This document shows, piece after piece, positions 5,835 through 36,700 of a stretch of 64,000 nucleotides of DNA. A model generated the notes under the pieces. The model was given only the letters and a program-made list of their open reading frames with translations, was not told the DNA's origin and did no database searches. The stretch is from Saccostrea cucullata (lineage: Eukaryota): assembly GCF_032062105.1 (NCBI RefSeq), contig NW_026929843.1:38440-102439 (forward strand). Reading direction: 5' to 3'. How positions within the stretch are numbered: position 1 is the stretch's first letter; every line of letters begins with the position of its first letter. The position numbers and the translations under genes are program-made.

Positions 5835-6180
5835 ACACACAAGGAAAATGTATAGAACTCCACTGGCTGCGTCAATACGCACCAGGACTTCCACTGGCTG
5901 CAACATGCTATGCACCAGGACTTCCACTGGCTGCAACATGCTATGCACCAGGACTTCCACTGGTTGCAACATGCTATGCACCATGACTTCCACTGGCTAC
6001 AACATGCTATGCACCAGGACTTCCACTGGTTGCAACTTGCTATGCACCAGGACTTCCACTGGCTACAACATGCTATGCACCAGGACTTCCACTGGCTGCA
6101 ACGTGCTATGCACCAGGACTTCCACTGGCAGCAACATGCTATGCACCAGGACTTCCACGGATGGATCGTGCTGTGCACCA
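5835..6180. repeat. 33-bp minisatellite, about 10 units ('ctggctgcaacatgctatgcaccaggacttcca')
   Basis: Head-to-tail units with few substitutions. ORFs on both strands here are translations of the repeat. Confidence 0.85.
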
Positions 6181-7796
6181 GAAACACCCTGGAAACTCTA
6201 CTTGCGTCACATACGCACCAATATAAACTTCACTGGCTGTAACGTGCAAGAACATAATGTTAAATCTACTAGTTGCAGTATGTTTAGCGCCAGGATTACT
6301 ATAAAGATTACTGTGCATTAAATGTATCATACATTATGAATCTTCATGTGTAGTAAAACCAAAACTTCATAACTGTGCAAAATTATAACTATTTTATAAA
6401 CTTCTATTACAAAATACAATTCAGTACTGTTTTTCCATTATACTATATAAAGAATTTTTCACAAGTAAATTTTTAACGACTTCTAGATCACTATTCATTT
6501 TATATTCTGCGACAGTGTCCATGGATATGATTTTTATAACATTTTAAATTTCTTGAGCCTTTGGAGCGGCATTTCCATGTACATCTGATTTTCCAATTTT
6601 AACGAAGCAGTATCATAGATAACACAGATAAAGTATAATCACAACCGTTTAATGTTCGATGTAGATTCAAATATAGGGATATGAAAAACTTCCCTCATTC
6701 AAAATTTATAAATCATTACGATTATTTCAAAATAAAACCTAAAATAATAATAGTTAAGATATTTCTATTTATGACGTTGTGGTATTCCACCCCCAAAGAT
6801 TATATATACAATTCTATTCTTGTACGCTCTTGAAAACTTAGACTACTATCTATACACTGAATCGAAAAATTCCTCGACACACAACAACTTCAACCGATTC
6901 ATTATTTGTTCTCAAATATCTCATGTCTTTTGAAAACAATTTTTAATTTGCGTCGTAGTGTGATGAATGAAATCTAGTTTCTTCAAGTCATGTCCAAAAA
7001 TAACTTTTTTTTTTATTTTTTTTATACATTTTATTACCATTTTAGTCTTGTAGAATTATCATAAAATAACTTACTTAACTGTTTGAATATAAAATCAATC
7101 CTGATGTCTTCCCACAAAGTTTTATTAAAATAGAAAATTAGGTGTTATGAGGAAGACAGATACATTTTAATAAAACAAAATTGTAATAAATTCAATAAAT
7201 TGTATATATTTTCATTTTATTTAGTAAAATATGTATTTTGTTTAAGAAAAGAAACTCGTACATGTATAAGAAGAAAACAGATTGACTTTGAATAATTAGT
7301 GTCAGAATTTAACAAAAAGTACAAGTATTTTACAGTGTAAGAATTCAATTTGTCACCCAAGGTTTTCCTGTTTATTCAATATAAAACAGTTTTTGTACAA
7401 GTGAAAAAAAGGACTTTCTTTTACAAATATTGGCATGACCAGCTAATGGATTTCTATTGTATTTTGGTAAACAATTTACCTATGAGTTTTTAGAGTCAGA
7501 TGTTCAATAAGTATGATAATCAAATAATTGCGTAATAGTGTTAATCTCTTTTGTGATTTTGTCTTTTTGTTAAGAATGCCTAAGGGTCTGAAGTCAAGCC
7601 CAGGTGTTCAAGTTTACTCAATTACCGTGGCGGTCATTTTTATGTCACGTGATCACTCTGTTTTTAATTAATCATCTTTATTTGGAAAATTTTTACAACT
7701 TTCGGCTATTCATTAAGAAATTCTAAATTTTGATTGGCTAAAATCCTGTAATCCAAAGACGCGGAATCGTCGGTGAAAATTCGCCCAAGCTTGGTC

Positions 7797-19164: not shown

Positions 19165-19302
19165 ATGATGGTTGAGTATGGTATGGAGGATACAGAGTTA
19201 TCTACCCCTGTGAAGGAGCTGATGCATCACATCTGGCAGGAAGCCGGGGGCGAGATAGAGGAAATCCTTAGTAGTCCACTACAATCACTAAAACTAGACC
19301 AG
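19165..19302 (+). CDS. PARP4: PARP4-like exon 6 (PARP regulatory region)
   Basis: Acceptor aacattcag, donor gtcagt. Phase 0. 'MMVEYGMEDTELSTPVKELMHHIWQEAGGEIEEILSSPLQSLKLDQ'. The 3' end of this exon seeds the downstream minisatellite. Confidence 0.6.
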
Positions 19303-19870
19303 GTCAGTAGGTCAAGGTCATAACAGACCAGGTCAGTAGGTCAATACAGTCACTGAAACTAGACCAGGTCAGAAGTTCAAGGTCATAACAGACCAGGTCA
19401 GTAGGTCAATACAGTCACTGAAACTAGACCAGGTCAGTAGGTCACTACAGTCACTGAAACTAGACCAGGTCAGTAGGTCACTACAATCACTGAAACTAGA
19501 CCAGGTCAGTAGGTCACTACAATCACTGTCAGTAGGTCACTACAATCACTGAAACTAGACCAGGTCAGTAGGTCACTACAATCACTGAAACTAGACCAGG
19601 TCAGTAGGTCACTACAATCACTGAAACTAGACCAGGTCAGTAGGTCACTACAATCACTGAAACTAGACCAGGTCAGTAGGTCAAGGTCAATCAACTCACT
19701 GAAACTAGACCAGGTCAGTAGGTCACTACAGTCACTGAAACTAGACCAGGTCAGTAGGTCACTACAGTCACTGAAACTAGACCAGGTCAGTAGGTCACTA
19801 CAGTCACTGAAACTAGACCAGGTCAGTAGGCTACTTCAATCACTGAAACTGGACCAGGTCAGTAGGTCAA
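19285..19870. repeat. 36-bp minisatellite ('cactgaaactagaccaggtcagtaggtcactacaat'), derived from the exon 6/intron junction
   Basis: The array starts inside the exon 6 3' end ('ccactacaatcactaaaactagaccag|gtcagtagg'). Each unit repeats the 'accag|gtcagt' donor context. It continues at 20670-20840 beyond the MITE. Confidence 0.85.
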
Positions 19871-19877
19871 GGTCATT

Positions 19878-20669
19878 ACTAGGGGTGGATATCGCCAGAA
19901 AAACTATATTGCGATATATTGCAATATTTGATGGCATATTGCGATGAATATTGCAATATATTGCTTTGCTGTCCATTTCATGTAAAGTTTGAAGTGAACC
20001 GAAAAATAGTGTATCTATAAACTTAAAATACCATATCTGATCATTTCACGTCAGATAATGTTTGCTGTTCACTGTTTATTTAGTTCCCTGTCAAAGTGTC
20101 TTAGTTATTTGTGTAAGAAATCGACATATTTTTCGAGTAAAATTAAGACAGTCGACATGTTCTCCTTTTCTTAAAAAAATAACTTCGTAAAAATTCAGAA
20201 ACTGTTGTTTTATGTCATATCTCAACTTTTCTTTTCTTTTTTTTTTAAACGTGGTATGTGTCCTCAGACATAGGAATCAGAATATTTAAGCATCACAAAC
20301 CTACACTGGCTAAACATCGTTTATAACATTTTTTTCGTCCGCCATTTTGATCAAGAAAAGTACGAAACCAGAGTATAAGTTTTCTGGAAAAAATTAAGTG
20401 TTGTTGAATTGAATCTTCAACATAATCCTTGTGATGATTGTAATAATTAATCCTTTTAATTCCATGCTTACCTTTTACACACTGTTGCAATGTCTATTTA
20501 CTAACAAAAACAAACTTTACAACTGCAAATACACCATATTTAGCATTTGTGTAATACTTCCGGTTTGCATATCGTCAATACCGGTATTGAAAAAATATAT
20601 TGCAATATATTATCGTTGGGTTTAATATTGCAATATACCGATATATCGATAATATTGCACACCCCTAGT
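19878..20669. mobile_element. MITE/non-autonomous DNA transposon with TIRs '(t)actaggggtg ... cacccctagt', inserted into the minisatellite
   Basis: Terminal inverted repeats at both ends. The interior is full of 'atattgcaata' palindromic motifs. Flanking 'tcatta' on both sides is a candidate target-site duplication. The minisatellite resumes right after it. Confidence 0.7.
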
Positions 20670-20840
20670 CATTACAGACCAGGTCATTGGGTCACTACAG
20701 TCACGGATACAATACCAGGTCAGTATGTCAAGGTCATTAGAGACCAGATCAGTAGGTTAGTTATGTCACTGAAACTGAACAAGGTCAATGTAATTACAGA
20801 TCAGGTAAGTAGGTCACTACAGTCACTGAAACAGATCTTT
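20670..20840. repeat. continuation of the 36-bp minisatellite downstream of the MITE insertion
   Basis: Degenerate units 'gaccaggtcattgggtcactacagtcac...'. Confidence 0.7.
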
Positions 20841-21083
20841 ATGTGAGGTCACTATAAATATATCATTAGCTTCATATAGTTAGTGAAATTGTGACAATAG
20901 ATTCATTTGTTATTTAAAAGTCTGTAGTTGAGCAACAACTAGTCAAATTTCATATGTAAAAGCAGCAGATTATCATCATTAATTTAATCTGTCATCCATA
21001 TTTCTAACTTGACAATGCAAGATTAACTTTTCTAGAAAACTCCTCAAACCATTTAAATGCTAGATTAATCACTTCCATTTTAG

Positions 21084-21251
21084 GTTGAGAAGGCGACGGC
21101 CATTTTGTCTGAGATGAAGGAGAACCAATCAGATGAGAGTAAGCTACAGAGTCTGTTTACCGAGTTCTACTCCACGCTCCCCCACAATCCCCAGCACAAG
21201 ACCACGACCTTCACCTTGTCATGGCTGGCCAGGAAACTGGACCTTTGTCAG
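21084..21251 (+). CDS. PARP4: PARP4-like exon 7 (PARP regulatory/helical region)
   Basis: Acceptor ccattttag, donor gtacaa. Phase 0. 'VEKATAILSEMKENQSDESKLQSLFTEFYSTLPHNPQHKTTTFTLSWLARKLDLCQ'. Confidence 0.6.
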
Positions 21252-21597: not shown

Positions 21598-21746
21598 CTG
21601 ATTAAGGACGTGGTGTCCGTGAGTGAAGCTACAGACTGGTCTACAAGGGGGAACACGGAGGCCCAGTACAAAGCCCTCAGATGTCAGATATCTCACGTTC
21701 CCGGGGGTCTACCAACACCAGTCAAAAACGTTCTCAATCTTAAGGA
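21598..21746 (+). CDS. PARP4: PARP4-like exon 8
   Basis: Acceptor gtgttgtag, donor gtaagt. Phase 0 in, 2 out. 'LIKDVVSVSEATDWSTRGNTEAQYKALRCQISHVPGGLPTPVKNVLNLK'. Its 3' part is the source of the 31-bp minisatellite immediately downstream. Confidence 0.6.
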
Positions 21747-21747
21747 G

Positions 21748-22178
21748 TAAGTACAAACCTGTATAGTAGTCAGATATCACAAGTACAAAACCCTCATATG
21801 TCAGATATCACAAGTACAAAATCCTCAGATGTCAGATATCACAAGTACAAAACCCTCAGATGTCAGATATCACAAGTACAAAACCCTCAGATGTCAGATA
21901 TCACAAGTACAAAACCCTCAGATGTCAGATATCACAAGTACAAAACCCTCAGATGTCAGATATCACAAGTACAAAACCCTCAGATGTCAGATATCACAAG
22001 TACAAAACCCTTAGATGTCAGATATCACAAGTACAAAACCCTCAGATGTCAGATATCACAATTACAAAACCCTCAGATGTCATATCACAAGTACAAAACC
22101 CTTAGATGTCAGATAACACACACATCCCTGGGGGTCTTCCAACACTGGTCAAAAACATCCTCAATCAAAGTAGTATAA
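21748..22178. repeat. 31-bp minisatellite ('cagatatcacaagtacaaaaccctcagatgt', about 12 units) derived from exon 8, ending with a duplicated pseudo-exon fragment (22100-22178)
   Basis: The unit resembles exon 8 'aaagccctcagatgtcagatatctcac'. After the array, 'cagataacacacacatccctgggggtcttccaacactggtcaaaaacatcctcaatcaaag' copies the exon 8 3' end 'cagatatctcacgttcccgggggtctaccaacaccagtcaaaaacgttctcaatcttaag'. Confidence 0.8.
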
Positions 22179-22485
22179 GTATGTTCAAACTTGTAATTAT
22201 AGTAGTCAGACAAGATAATCTCTTGAGTCTGTTAGTGTTAAAGACAGTCAAAGATTATCATATTAAAAATTAATATTAGAGTAAAGTGGTGGGAAGTGGT
22301 AAAATCTCATAATTGGTGATTAGTTTCTTGTAACATTATTGCTTATCTTACTGGGTAAGTGTGGATTCTGAAAGGCCTGAATGTTGAGTTAAAGCCAAAA
22401 TGTTATCCAACCTAGATGGCAGCTAATTTATTGTAAATGTCACAGCTTCATATTTTGTGTACCTATTGCTTACTGTTTGTTTCAG

Positions 22486-31057: not shown

Positions 31058-33730
31058 TTGAAATTGGTGGAAAATACCTTAAAATCCCGAGTATTGGGCG
31101 CACTTTTTTTCGTCAGAAAAATGTTCAAAAGTAGGGATGCACTCAATACATCGGAACAAAATTCATCCCCCTTTTTTTCAGGTCACTTTCTCAGTGCCGA
31201 GGACCATTTTCCTGATCCATTTGAATTGATTACCCTTTTGTAACCAATTACGTCAAAGTTAATCGAATTTTAGAGAGTTATATGCATAAGTCCTACCTGT
31301 TGTAGAAATATACATATACCCTAAGTATTGAAATAAAGAAAACCGTTTCAAAAATCAAATTCTGATGAAAAACGATCTTTGTTTATATTTTATTTCCATT
31401 GCATATTCCGCCATTTTGAACTACCGTCGCTTATATCATCAACGAACAGCATGTCGCTTAAGACATAGATGTATTTAATTAATACCTATAAATGAGTCAA
31501 AAATAGATTCCAAGTGCTAGAAGGATTAGAAAGTGTTGACGACATCTGGGAAAATATGATAAAAGGTTACAACGAGACAGCAGACAGCATACTTGGGGTA
31601 AAAGAAAAGGGACAAAAACCATGGATAAGCAGGGAGTCTTGGAAGGTAGTAGAAGAGAGGAAGCAGCTAAAACTCCAACTTACCAACAGCAGATCAGAAA
31701 GATTAAAAAGAAGTTTAAGAAATAAATATTCAGTTAAAGACAGAGAGGTAAAACGCAGTATGAGGAATAACAGGAGAAAGTGGACAGAAGACATGATTAC
31801 AGAAGCAGAAAGAGCAGCAAGTAATGGGCACATGAAAACAGTATACGAGATAACTAGAGTGTTAAGCAATGAAAAGAAAGGCATGACAACAGCAATAAAG
31901 GATAAAGAGGGGAAGATCCTGAGCAGTCAAGATGAAAGAAAGAAAAGGTGGAAAGAGCACTTTCAAGAAATATTAAACCGCCCGCAACCTGAACATCCAT
32001 TAGAAGTTGAAAGCGAAGATCAAGAATTAGATGAGATGGATACAAGTCCCATACGAAAAGAGGAAATAGTGAAGGCTATAAAGAACCTGAAGAATGGAAA
32101 GGCTGGAGGAGTAGATGGAATAACAGCTGAATTGTTAAAGGCAAACACAGAGACAACAGCAAGATATTTGGAAAAACTGTTTTCAACAATCTGGAGACAA
32201 GAAACCATACCATCAGTCTGGAGTAAAGGCCTGATAGTGAAGATCCCAAAGAAAGGTGATAGATCGGTATGTGATAATTATAGAGGAATAACACTTCTAT
32301 CTGTGCCAAGCAAAGTATTCTCCAGAATAGTAATACAGAGAATCCAAGATGGAGTTGAAAAACAGCTGCGTGAGGAACAAGCTGGCTTCAGAAGAGGGAG
32401 GAGTACAACTGAACAACTATTCACACTCCGAAACATCATAGAGCAATGCACCGAATGGAATTCAACATTGTTTATAAACTATGTTGACTTTGAAAAGGCA
32501 TTTGATTCCATTCACAGAGAGAGCCTTTGGTCCATCATGAAGTTCTATGGCATCCCAGACAAATTGGTCAGAATGGTGAAACTCCTATATGAATCATTCC
32601 AATGTGCAGTCCTTGAAGATGGAGAAGAAACGGACTGATTCTGGGTATCAACAGGAGTGAAACAGGGCTGCACAATGTCTGGATTCCTATTTCTGTTGGT
32701 CATAGATTACGTAATGAAAAGAACTACAGAAAGCGAGCCAACAGGAATAAGATGGAATTTCACAACAAAACTGGAAGACCTAGACTTCGCAGATGATCTT
32801 GCCTTACTTTCCTCCAAATTTCAAGACATCCAACAAAAGACACAAAGACTCAATGAAACTGCTAAGCAAGCTGGCCTCAGAATAAACACCGAGAAAACTA
32901 AAGTGATGAAGATCAACTCAGACATAAAAGAAGCAGTCAAGATTGATGGACAAGACCTAGAAGATGTAGAAAAATTTACTTACCTTGGAGGCGTAATAAC
33001 AACAAAGGGAGGTGCTGACGAGGACATTACCAACAGACTGGGAAAAGCTAAGTCCCAATTCGGAAGGCTCAGGAAAATCTGGAGCTCATCAAAGTTTTCC
33101 ATCCAAACAAAAGTAAAGCTATTTAACAGCCTAGTCCTGTCAGTTTTAATGTATGGAAGCGAAACATGGAAAACAACAGAGAGAGACAAAAAGAAAATTG
33201 ACACCTTCCAGAATAGATGCCTTAGAAAGATCTTGCGAGTAAGATGGCCCGAGAAAGTGTCTAATGAAGAACTCCATCAAAGAACAAAGACAGCTACAGC
33301 AAGTGAAATGATAACCCTCAGGAAGTGGAAGTGGATTGGCCATGTACTGAGGATGGATAACACCAGGATATGTACCACTGCACTGACATGGCATCCAGAA
33401 GGAAAGAGAAAAGTAGGCCGGTCAAAAACAACTTGGAGGAGGACCACGGAGCAAGAGACTGGGGAGGAAAAGCTGGGCGTCAGCGAGGGCAGCAGCAAAG
33501 ACAGAAACATTGGAGACTGTGTATTGGGGCCTTATGTGCCAGCGGGCACGAAGAGGACAGGTGAGGTGAGGTATAAATGAGTCAACAGCTATAATCTTTT
33601 TGATGTTTTTCTGATTTATTCTTATTTCTATAACTTATTTTTATGTTTTAAATTTAAGATATGTGATTTGAGTTACAAATTGTTAGGGATTGTATTGCTG
33701 CGTCATTGCTATATTTAACTTCAGTCTAAG
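31058..33730 (+). mobile_element. 5'-truncated, frameshifted RTE-like non-LTR retrotransposon (reverse-transcriptase ORFs 31514..32638 and 32657..33580) inside the intron
   Basis: RT motifs 'FRRGRSTTEQLFTLRNIIEQ', 'YVDFEKAFDSIHRESLW', 'GVKQGCTMSGFLF' and 'FADDLALLS'. There is no endonuclease domain upstream (5' truncation). The two RT halves are in different frames (frameshift near 32640). A short AT-rich 3' tail follows. Confidence 0.8.
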
Positions 33731-35779: not shown

Positions 35780-36087
35780 ATGTAACTAATAATATCCTGT
35801 TCTTCCTGTATTGCAATCAAATATGGCTCCAATATATGAAGAAAAAATGCAGTAACTGTTTTAATTAATTAGATTTTGTGATATACATGCATCAATAAAA
35901 CAATTTTTCATTCACATTGTTAAGATGTAATACCCAGAAACAAAATTCTTAAATTTGCATCATGATAAAAACAAAACCAGTACAATTGGAATTATACCTG
36001 TTACATGTTCGAGAAAGAGAGAGAGAAAAAGAGTTAAAGGGAGTGGGTTAATGAATTATATTTAGACCAGCTTAGCAGTCAGTCATA

Positions 36088-36700
36088 TAGGGCTGGGCAA
36101 AAATATCAATATTTCAATATATTGTGATACCATTATGACAAAAAATAACATATTGCAATACGATTTTGTAATATCCATATGAAATTGGCAATATGCTTAA
36201 ATTAAGGAACTTTATCATTTGATATAAAAATGGACTTTATGAAAGTTGGTTTTTAAGCCAAACAGTAAGACAGAAGTTGTTTTGTGGGAGCATTTCAGAG
36301 CATTACTTACTGTAAATCACTTTATTCGCGAGAACTTTATTTTCCCCTAATTACGTGAGACGGAATGCTCGCAAAAATTTCATGCTCGCGTATTATAGAA
36401 TTCCTTAAAATTATATAGAGTAATGACCACAATTCGTGAAAATATTGTCTCGCTAATAAAGAGGCAATGACTATCTCCCGAAAATAAGGTGTTGCGAAAA
36501 TGAAAATTATCTACAGTAATTGATATCAACCAGATTATTTTCAGGGTTGGTTTCATATCATAGGTATGTACATTCTGTATGTAAATTGAAGTAAATAAAG
36601 TGATAAAATGTCTTTTTAATTACTTTTAAAATATTGCAATACATATCACAAATATACACTCAGTTAAAAATATCGCAATATATCTCAATACCCGCCCTAG
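36088..36700. mobile_element. MITE, TIRs 'tagggctgggca ... cccgccctag', 'attgcaata'-rich interior (same family as 19878-20669)
   Basis: The termini are seen directly. A partial copy lies at 58640-58745. Confidence 0.65.

Follow-up and report, generated by a model that had tools for sequence, protein, structure and literature searches.

An intronic minisatellite built of an exon end and its splice donor, interrupted by a hAT-like transposon, in a PARP4-like gene of Saccostrea cucullata

The stretch of DNA analysed here, referred to below as the window, comprises 64,000 nucleotides (nt) of Saccostrea cucullata (NCBI RefSeq assembly GCF_032062105.1, contig NW_026929843.1, positions 38,440 to 102,439 of the forward strand) and carries on its plus strand a PARP4-like gene with GT-AG introns. 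One of these introns holds a minisatellite whose units repeat the end of the preceding coding exon together with its 5' splice site, and a transposon interrupts this array; array and transposon together take up about 1540 of the 1781 nt of the intron. Pfam matches to BRCT, PARP_reg, PARP, VIT and VWA fall in this order on successive exons, and because BRCT, PARP regulatory, PARP catalytic, VIT and vWA is the architecture of PARP4, we assign the host gene as a predicted orthologue of PARP4 (vault PARP). The named proteins closest to it in a protein search come from the sea urchin Lytechinus pictus (PARP4-like) and the bivalve Solemya velum (PARP/VIT); this search returned no homologue above 48% identity over the array region, and reached 65% over the catalytic exons (Solemya velum). 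The features that the argument needs are listed below by window position, with a slash marking exon/intron boundaries and with L and S denoting the two unit types of the array.

19165-19302, plus strand: coding exon of the PARP regulatory domain, phase 0 at both ends, encoding MMVEYGMEDTELSTPVKELMHHIWQEAGGEIEEILSSPLQSLKLDQ, with acceptor ttcag/ and donor CAG/GTCAGT; placed by homologue alignment
19270-19305, plus strand: unit 0 of the array in the AGTAG register, made of 33 exonic bases (30/33 matches to consensus L) and the intronic GTC
19300-19308, plus strand: true 5' splice site CAG/GTCAGT, the junction being fixed by gap-free homology (...LKLDQ/VEKA...) and by the sea urchin intron
19303-21083, plus strand: whole intron, 1781 nt, with acceptor ttttag/GTTGAG at 21083/21084 and a sea urchin intron at the equal position
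19303-19879, plus strand: proximal array, with an S-L-S-L edge, a near-perfect L run at 19433-19857 and then an S unit broken by the transposon
19872-19879, plus strand: left target-site duplication GTCATTAC, 8 bp, one of a direct repeat pair
19880-20667, no strand assigned: hAT-like non-autonomous transposon, 788 bp, resembling a miniature inverted-repeat transposable element (MITE), with termini TAGGGGTG and CACCCCTA
20668-20675, plus strand: right target-site duplication GTCATTAC, 8 bp, the other member of the pair
20676-20840, plus strand: distal decayed array, S-L alternation, 17-29/36 matches to consensus
21084-21251, plus strand: next coding exon (VEKATAILSEMKE...LDLCQ), read from the sequence and from homologue alignment

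The array consists of head-to-tail tandem copies, many in number, of a unit within the 10-100 bp range of a minisatellite. By Tandem Repeats Finder the array has period 36 and 15.6 copies at 19325-19870; higher-order periods of 72, 131 and 186 are given as well, and the row of period 131 starts at 19270, within the exon. An earlier reading made from the letters alone (the sequence-only reading) had let the array begin inside the exon, and this is the case, although the overlap is 33 nt (19270-19302) and not the 27 nt it gave; upstream of 19270 the similarity ends. The likeness between unit and exon also stood up to alignment, and of the three exonic bases that differ from the consensus one is the A at 19293, a G in all units, which makes the synonymous change CTA/CTG. 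Allowing up to 3 mismatches, the consensus 36-mer is found 11 times and is absent from the rest of the 64 kb. When metagenome contigs were scanned for exact matches to a 29-nt part of the unit, 0 were obtained, and a 52-amino-acid (aa) open reading frame (ORF) reaching from the exon into the array likewise had no exact match when looked up.

In place of the single 36-bp unit of the sequence-only reading there are two unit types: L, of that length (GTCAGTAGGTCACTACAATCACTGAAACTAGACCAG), and S, of 29 nt (GTCAGTAGGTCAAGGTCATAACAGACCAG), and the first intronic unit is an S. Units of the two types alternate with a 65-nt period at the 5' edge (19303-19432) and again at the 3' edge, from 19858 through the insert to about 20840. 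Between these edges runs the central block of L units at 19433-19857, with 0-1 mismatches per unit, which holds a 23-nt internal duplication, one S/L hybrid and a 186-nt higher-order duplication; the L units fall into three subtypes that are arranged in blocks. This irregular pattern on several scales appears to be that of a drifting minisatellite. The pentamer AGTAG stands at 19270 and again at 19306, a spacing of 36 nt, and was weighed as a microhomology seed for slippage, a role that we find inseparable from the mere start of copy 2.

Each unit copies the splice donor along with the exon tail. The 14-mer ACCAGGTCAGTAGG, divided as ACCAG/GTCAGTAGG, is present in 15 exact copies between 19298 and 19866, the first of which is the exon/intron junction itself; the other 14 are decoys within the proximal array, and all of them have the 9-mer CAG/GTCAGT. 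One further copy, at 19363, has two mismatches and the donor CAG/GTCAGA, and four degenerate copies lie at 20678-20813; the number of such copies expected by chance is 0.27. Among these distal copies, donor-like sites follow 20682 (GTCATT), 20718 (GTCAGT) and 20804 (GTAAGT), and the site after 20747 has lost its GT. The decoys that retain GT number 18 in total, namely 14 exact, 1 variant and 3 degenerate ones past the insert. A donor in every unit, as first proposed, is therefore true of nearly all units but not of the one at 20747, and the figure of more than 15 decoys holds for GT-retaining sites and not for exact ones. The most distal degenerate unit reads CAG/GTAAGT at 20802-20810, nearer to the donor consensus than the true CAG/GTCAGT.

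How could the true site be told from its copies? From -12 to +12 the true donor is identical to 10 decoys over the whole 24-mer, and therefore nothing local marks it and the choice must be positional. The true donor has C at +3 where four neighbouring donors have A (AAG/GTATAT, CAG/GTACAA, GGA/GTAAGT and CAG/GTAATG), and it can pair with the 5' end of U1 small nuclear RNA (snRNA) at 8 of 9 positions; donor strength is argued here from site identity and U1 complementarity. An RNA fold that hides the decoy donors was considered and dropped, as the exon with the proximal array folds no better than shuffled sequences (z = -0.93).

The decoys lie 29, 65, 94, 130, 166, 202, 261... nt from the true donor, with remainders modulo 3 of 2, 2, 1, 1, 1, 1 and then 0. 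Decoys that are all in phase with the exon end, and exon extensions in frame-preserving steps of 36 nt, both features of the sequence-only reading, are not what these offsets give: the first step measures 29 nt, and all extensions run into an in-frame TAA at 19321-19323, seven codons past the true donor, and read ...LDQVSRSRS before the stop. Use of any decoy therefore gives a premature stop and no in-frame isoform. The exon is 138 nt long when the true donor is used, 167-693 nt with the decoys before the insert and more than 1500 nt with those past it. With their stop far upstream of later junctions, decoy-spliced transcripts would be likely targets of nonsense-mediated decay.

In which direction did the copying go? 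The exon tail, SSPLQSLKLDQ/VEKA across the junction, aligns without gaps to a motif of the PARP regulatory domain in 11 homologues, bacterial ones included. The motif, PLxxLxxxQ(V/I)xKA, is conserved, and its proline (P93) is invariant in all 12 sequences. The aligned segments are as follows.

Window, exon tail and start of the next exon: SSPLQSLKLDQ/VEKATAILSEM
Homologue P0008: SPIESFKTEQVEKAEAALMSL
Homologue P0001: VPIDSINLSTVDKAESLLLSI
Sea urchin: VPVASILPGQVAKAEAVLYRM
Bacterial PARPs: TPLGILTLGQIEKGQDVLDEL

The exon tail is thus conserved coding sequence and therefore ancestral, and the intronic units are its copies; on this alignment we read the direction of copying as from exon to array. 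The intron can be dated against the array in a similar way. In Lytechinus pictus the exon ends in ...CCAGGGCAA/GTACGT (CAA/GTACGT) and the next exon follows as tttttcag/GTTGCGAAGGCAGAG (start GTTGCGAAGGC), and the window junctions, CAG/GTCAGT ... ttttag/GTTGAGAAGGCGACG (start GTTGAGAAGGC), lie at the same codon boundary and in the same phase. Since the sea urchin shares it, the intron is old, predates the array and was not made by it. Growth of the array from the exon/intron junction, as the sequence-only reading had it, is borne out by both the conserved exon tail and the common intron position and phase. Two other origins were rejected on the same evidence: birth of the intron from the array, under AGGT-duplication or tandem-array models, is ruled out by the sea urchin intron, and exonisation of a repeat as the source of the exon end is ruled out by the conservation of the exon tail.

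Homologue P0008, from an assembly in the European Nucleotide Archive (ENA), has no intron at the Q/V position, an absence best read as a probable loss in its lineage. In the eukaryote PARP4-like gene of ENA ERZ25072196 (L001, 6001-6606) the Q/V intron is missing and only a 78-nt in-frame intron after ...DLCQ is present, and in several other ENA homologues (P0001-P0007) the ORF is likewise uninterrupted across four of the intron positions of the window, so that these lineages are intron-poor. In Solemya velum (GCA_048127485.1, L005) the annotated PARP/VIT gene is without the upstream regulatory-domain exons; a PARP4_MVP-ID gene is annotated just upstream on the opposite strand, so the PARP4 locus may have been split or misannotated in this assembly.

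Features of the hAT superfamily are a target duplication of 8 bp that fits nTnnnnAn and a terminus in TAGGG (YARNG pattern). The insert in the array has such an 8-bp duplication, terminal inverted repeats (TIRs) of the YARNG type that match perfectly over 8 nt, several ATATTGCAATAT motifs in subterminal position at both ends, a small size and no transposase gene; it contains no long ORF, the longest one wholly inside it being 65 aa. With its target duplication, its short TIRs starting in TAGGG, its subterminal motifs and the lack of a transposase it resembles hAT MITEs, from which it differs in that 788 bp is at the upper end of the MITE size range. The TIR-bounded MITE seen by the sequence-only reading is thus present, but its limits are 19880-20667 and not 19878-20669, two bases inside at either end. 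The window holds one related copy of the 788-bp element, at about 36087-36695 on the minus strand, with ends TAGGGCGGG and CCCAGCCCTA and shared subterminal motifs (ATATTGCRATAT); its target duplication is imperfect (TGACTAAC / TGACTGAC).

Excision in silico of the insert and one copy of the duplication yields the S unit GTCAGTAGGTCAAGGTCATTACAGACCAG, with 28 of 29 positions as in the first S unit. As removal restores an intact S unit and the 8-bp duplication is perfect, the transposon landed in an array that already existed, and the array does continue on the far side, as decayed units at 20676-20840. The proposed order of events, array before transposon, is upheld by this, with one caveat: the expansion of the near-perfect L run at 19433-19857 may be later than the insertion. 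Such later expansion is possible because the part past the insert is far more decayed, its L units matching the consensus at 26-29 of 36 positions compared with 32-36 of 36 before the insert. The distal decay could mean either that the array had a decayed end there before the transposon arrived, or that the proximal block kept expanding once the insertion had separated the distal part from it.

A second exon-derived array lies in the PARP4 gene 2.4 kb downstream, at 21665-22210. Here the segment 21665-21774, which comprises 82 nt of the exon at 21598-21746, its donor GA/GTAAGT and 28 nt of intron, is duplicated at 22090-22210 with 78% identity, and between the copies stands an 11-copy array of a 31-bp unit (21769-22120) whose unit corresponds to exon bases 21667-21697. 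Duplications on the donor side are expected to be tolerated, because the first donor stays intact and the extra copy falls in the intron. Two such duplications in one gene are notable, but not beyond chance given the repeat density: the 64 kb contain about 20 pairs of local direct repeats, a frequency in keeping with a genome prone to duplication and not with a special device. Other minisatellites are found at 5879-6181 (33-bp unit, 9 copies) and at 57956-58597 (171-bp and 18/36/54-bp arrays).

Some further observations concern the array and its surroundings. Of the 61 AGGTCA hexamers on the forward strand of the window 41 lie within 19260-20850, and TCAAGGTCA, which is the extended half-site of nuclear receptors of the ERR/SF-1 type, occurs six times, five of them in S units; these sites probably arise incidentally from the sequence of the unit. 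At 31514-33580 on the plus strand, past the vWA exons, two ORFs of 374 and 307 aa resemble LINE-type reverse transcriptase.

Does the row of pseudo-donors serve the gene? Were the array a working regulator, U1-binding pseudo-donors would divert pre-mRNA into stop-containing transcripts that are decayed, and copy number would set the output of PARP4; in a variant of this explanation, loading of U1 small nuclear ribonucleoprotein (snRNP) near the true donor would aid exon definition or suppress premature polyadenylation in the AT-rich transposon. Several properties of the array are what such a device would have: nothing local favours the true donor over the ten decoys that share its 24 nt, the 9-mer has stayed identical at 14 decoys, and the early in-frame stop is present in all extensions, as a decay-coupled switch requires. 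Elsewhere, the copy number of a variable number tandem repeat (VNTR) at a junction of the human CBS gene has been reported to correlate with enzyme activity (PMC5188458), and intronic VNTRs that alter splicing have been documented at scale (PMC10078293). However, the make-up of the array is the irregular, multi-period one of a drifting minisatellite, it has been interrupted by a transposon and is decaying in its distal third, and the similar exon-derived array in the same gene has units without donors, which points to a habit of duplication and not to a purpose. We regard both the decay-coupled regulator and the U1-loading variant as unlikely. The further-reaching idea, that pseudo-donor copy number is a heritable dial on PARP4 output and that the two exon-end arrays in adjacent introns reflect preferential duplication of 5' splice sites and not chance, appears improbable to a comparable degree.

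Two further explanations we hold to be much less probable still. An assembly artefact, in the form of a repeat collapsed or expanded in error or of a chimeric join where the transposon sits, has to be considered for a single assembled copy of a locus, given that repeat copy numbers are error-prone in assemblies. The heterogeneity of the units is nonetheless ordered, with S and L at both edges, three L subtypes in blocks and the 23-nt and 186-nt duplications, and the transposon has a perfect 8-bp target duplication and on removal restores a unit; both features are hard to obtain by misassembly, which makes an artefact very unlikely, even if the copy number of the array alone could be wrong while the structure is real. 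Copying in the reverse direction, where a dispersed or transposon-borne satellite would have supplied the exon end and donor, or a tandem duplication would have made the intron, draws on the near identity of exon tail and repeat unit and on the missing intron of homologue P0008. Against it, the residues of the exon tail are conserved between bacteria and animals and align to the homologues without an insertion or deletion, the sea urchin intron at the equal codon boundary and phase places the intron before the array, and the 36-mer is confined to this locus within the 64 kb; we consider reverse copying the least probable of all these explanations.

The reading we prefer, and hold to be probable, is that of an intronic minisatellite, or VNTR, that grew from the duplication of an exon end and its donor, received a transposon later and is itself neutral or slightly costly. 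It would have begun when a short segment across the 3' end of the PARP4 exon and the 5' splice site was duplicated in tandem, the founder segment being either 36 nt or the 65-nt pair of S and L. Slippage and unequal exchange may then have raised the array to about 20 units with higher-order periods of 65, 72, 131 and 186 nt, and since each unit copies exon tail and donor, the intron now opens with a row of 14 exact and several degenerate pseudo-donors. Presumably splicing uses the donor that comes first after the acceptor, as the need for an intact protein suggests and as would fit exon definition for an exon of 138 nt; occasional splicing to a decoy would yield stop-containing RNA that nonsense-mediated decay may remove. 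The hAT-like element later inserted into an S unit, after which the upstream array either stayed homogeneous or turned over, while about 170 nt downstream decayed. Of this account, the sequence comparisons show the anatomy, the direction of copying, the age of the intron and the arrival of the transposon after the array; slippage, choice of the first donor, decay of mis-spliced RNA and neutrality are inferred. On balance the array is most likely neutral or slightly costly, and not a designed regulator.

Some points weigh against this explanation. The exon-matching L subtype (CACTACAATCACT) occupies mid-array positions and not those beside the exon, and the founding step is therefore not directly readable. 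Eperon and colleagues are said to have found in 1993, in a mammalian in vitro system, that among identical strong tandem 5' splice sites the one nearest the 3' splice site is favoured; a preference of this type would predict substantial use of the decoys, with a real cost, or else a regulatory function, as the consequence. That splicing keeps to the first donor is, moreover, deduced from the need for an intact protein.

Arrays of this kind are not without precedent. In the human CBS gene a 31-bp VNTR spans the boundary of exon 13 and intron 13 (PMC5188458, PMC1395315). There as here the first unit overlaps the 3' end of an exon, in the window a genuine and conserved coding exon, and the boundary is repeated along the intron, in the window with units that reproduce the 5' splice-site sequence including its GT (14 + 1 + 3 sites). 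The dimensions are close as well, with a unit of 31 nt in CBS and 36 nt here, and about 15-21 copies compared with about 20. In 2001 Lievers et al. (Eur J Hum Genet 9:583) reportedly found that each CBS unit has a donor and, by reverse transcription PCR, that some alternative splicing takes place. The array described here differs in belonging to another gene and another animal, in its two unit types of 36 and 29 nt, in its early in-frame stop and in the transposon it contains; moreover, the CBS repeat is polymorphic and linked to enzyme activity, whereas the present array is known from one sequence alone.

As cited in PMC2812944, tandem arrays with repeated 5' splice sites have also been described in human genes, where they give alternatively spliced introns (Zhuo, Madden, Elela and Chabot 2007, PNAS 104:882). 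Like the array in PARP4, these are tandem repeats inside a transcribed gene with a 5' splice site in each unit. Reportedly, however, the arrays of Zhuo et al. 2007 themselves create young introns, whereas the intron here is old and common to an echinoderm, and the array merely fills it. The modulation of splicing by intronic tandem repeats has been catalogued more broadly (spl-TR; PMC10078293). With the repeats of this catalogue and with the ABCA7 VNTR (De Roeck et al. 2018) the array shares its position in an intron near a splice site and the potential to affect splicing by its length; those repeats act mostly through motifs for RNA-binding proteins or through spacing, whereas here the unit is the splice site. 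The phenomenon is thus already known from human CBS, and the array in an invertebrate PARP4 adds an example and not a new principle; what it has beyond the known cases is a transposon that serves as a time-marker and an in-frame stop.

In conclusion, the PARP4 intron of Saccostrea cucullata offers a natural experiment in the choice of 5' splice sites, in which ten sites that equal the true donor over 24 nt come after it, at a spacing of 36 nt, and a built-in stop marks any mis-splicing. Given RNA reads or genotypes of the animal, such an array could reveal how strict the preference for the first donor is, and whether copy number affects the expression of PARP4. It also preserves an ordered history, from an old intron to an array, to a transposon and probably to further expansion, and indicates that duplications of exon/intron junctions are tolerated in this genome.

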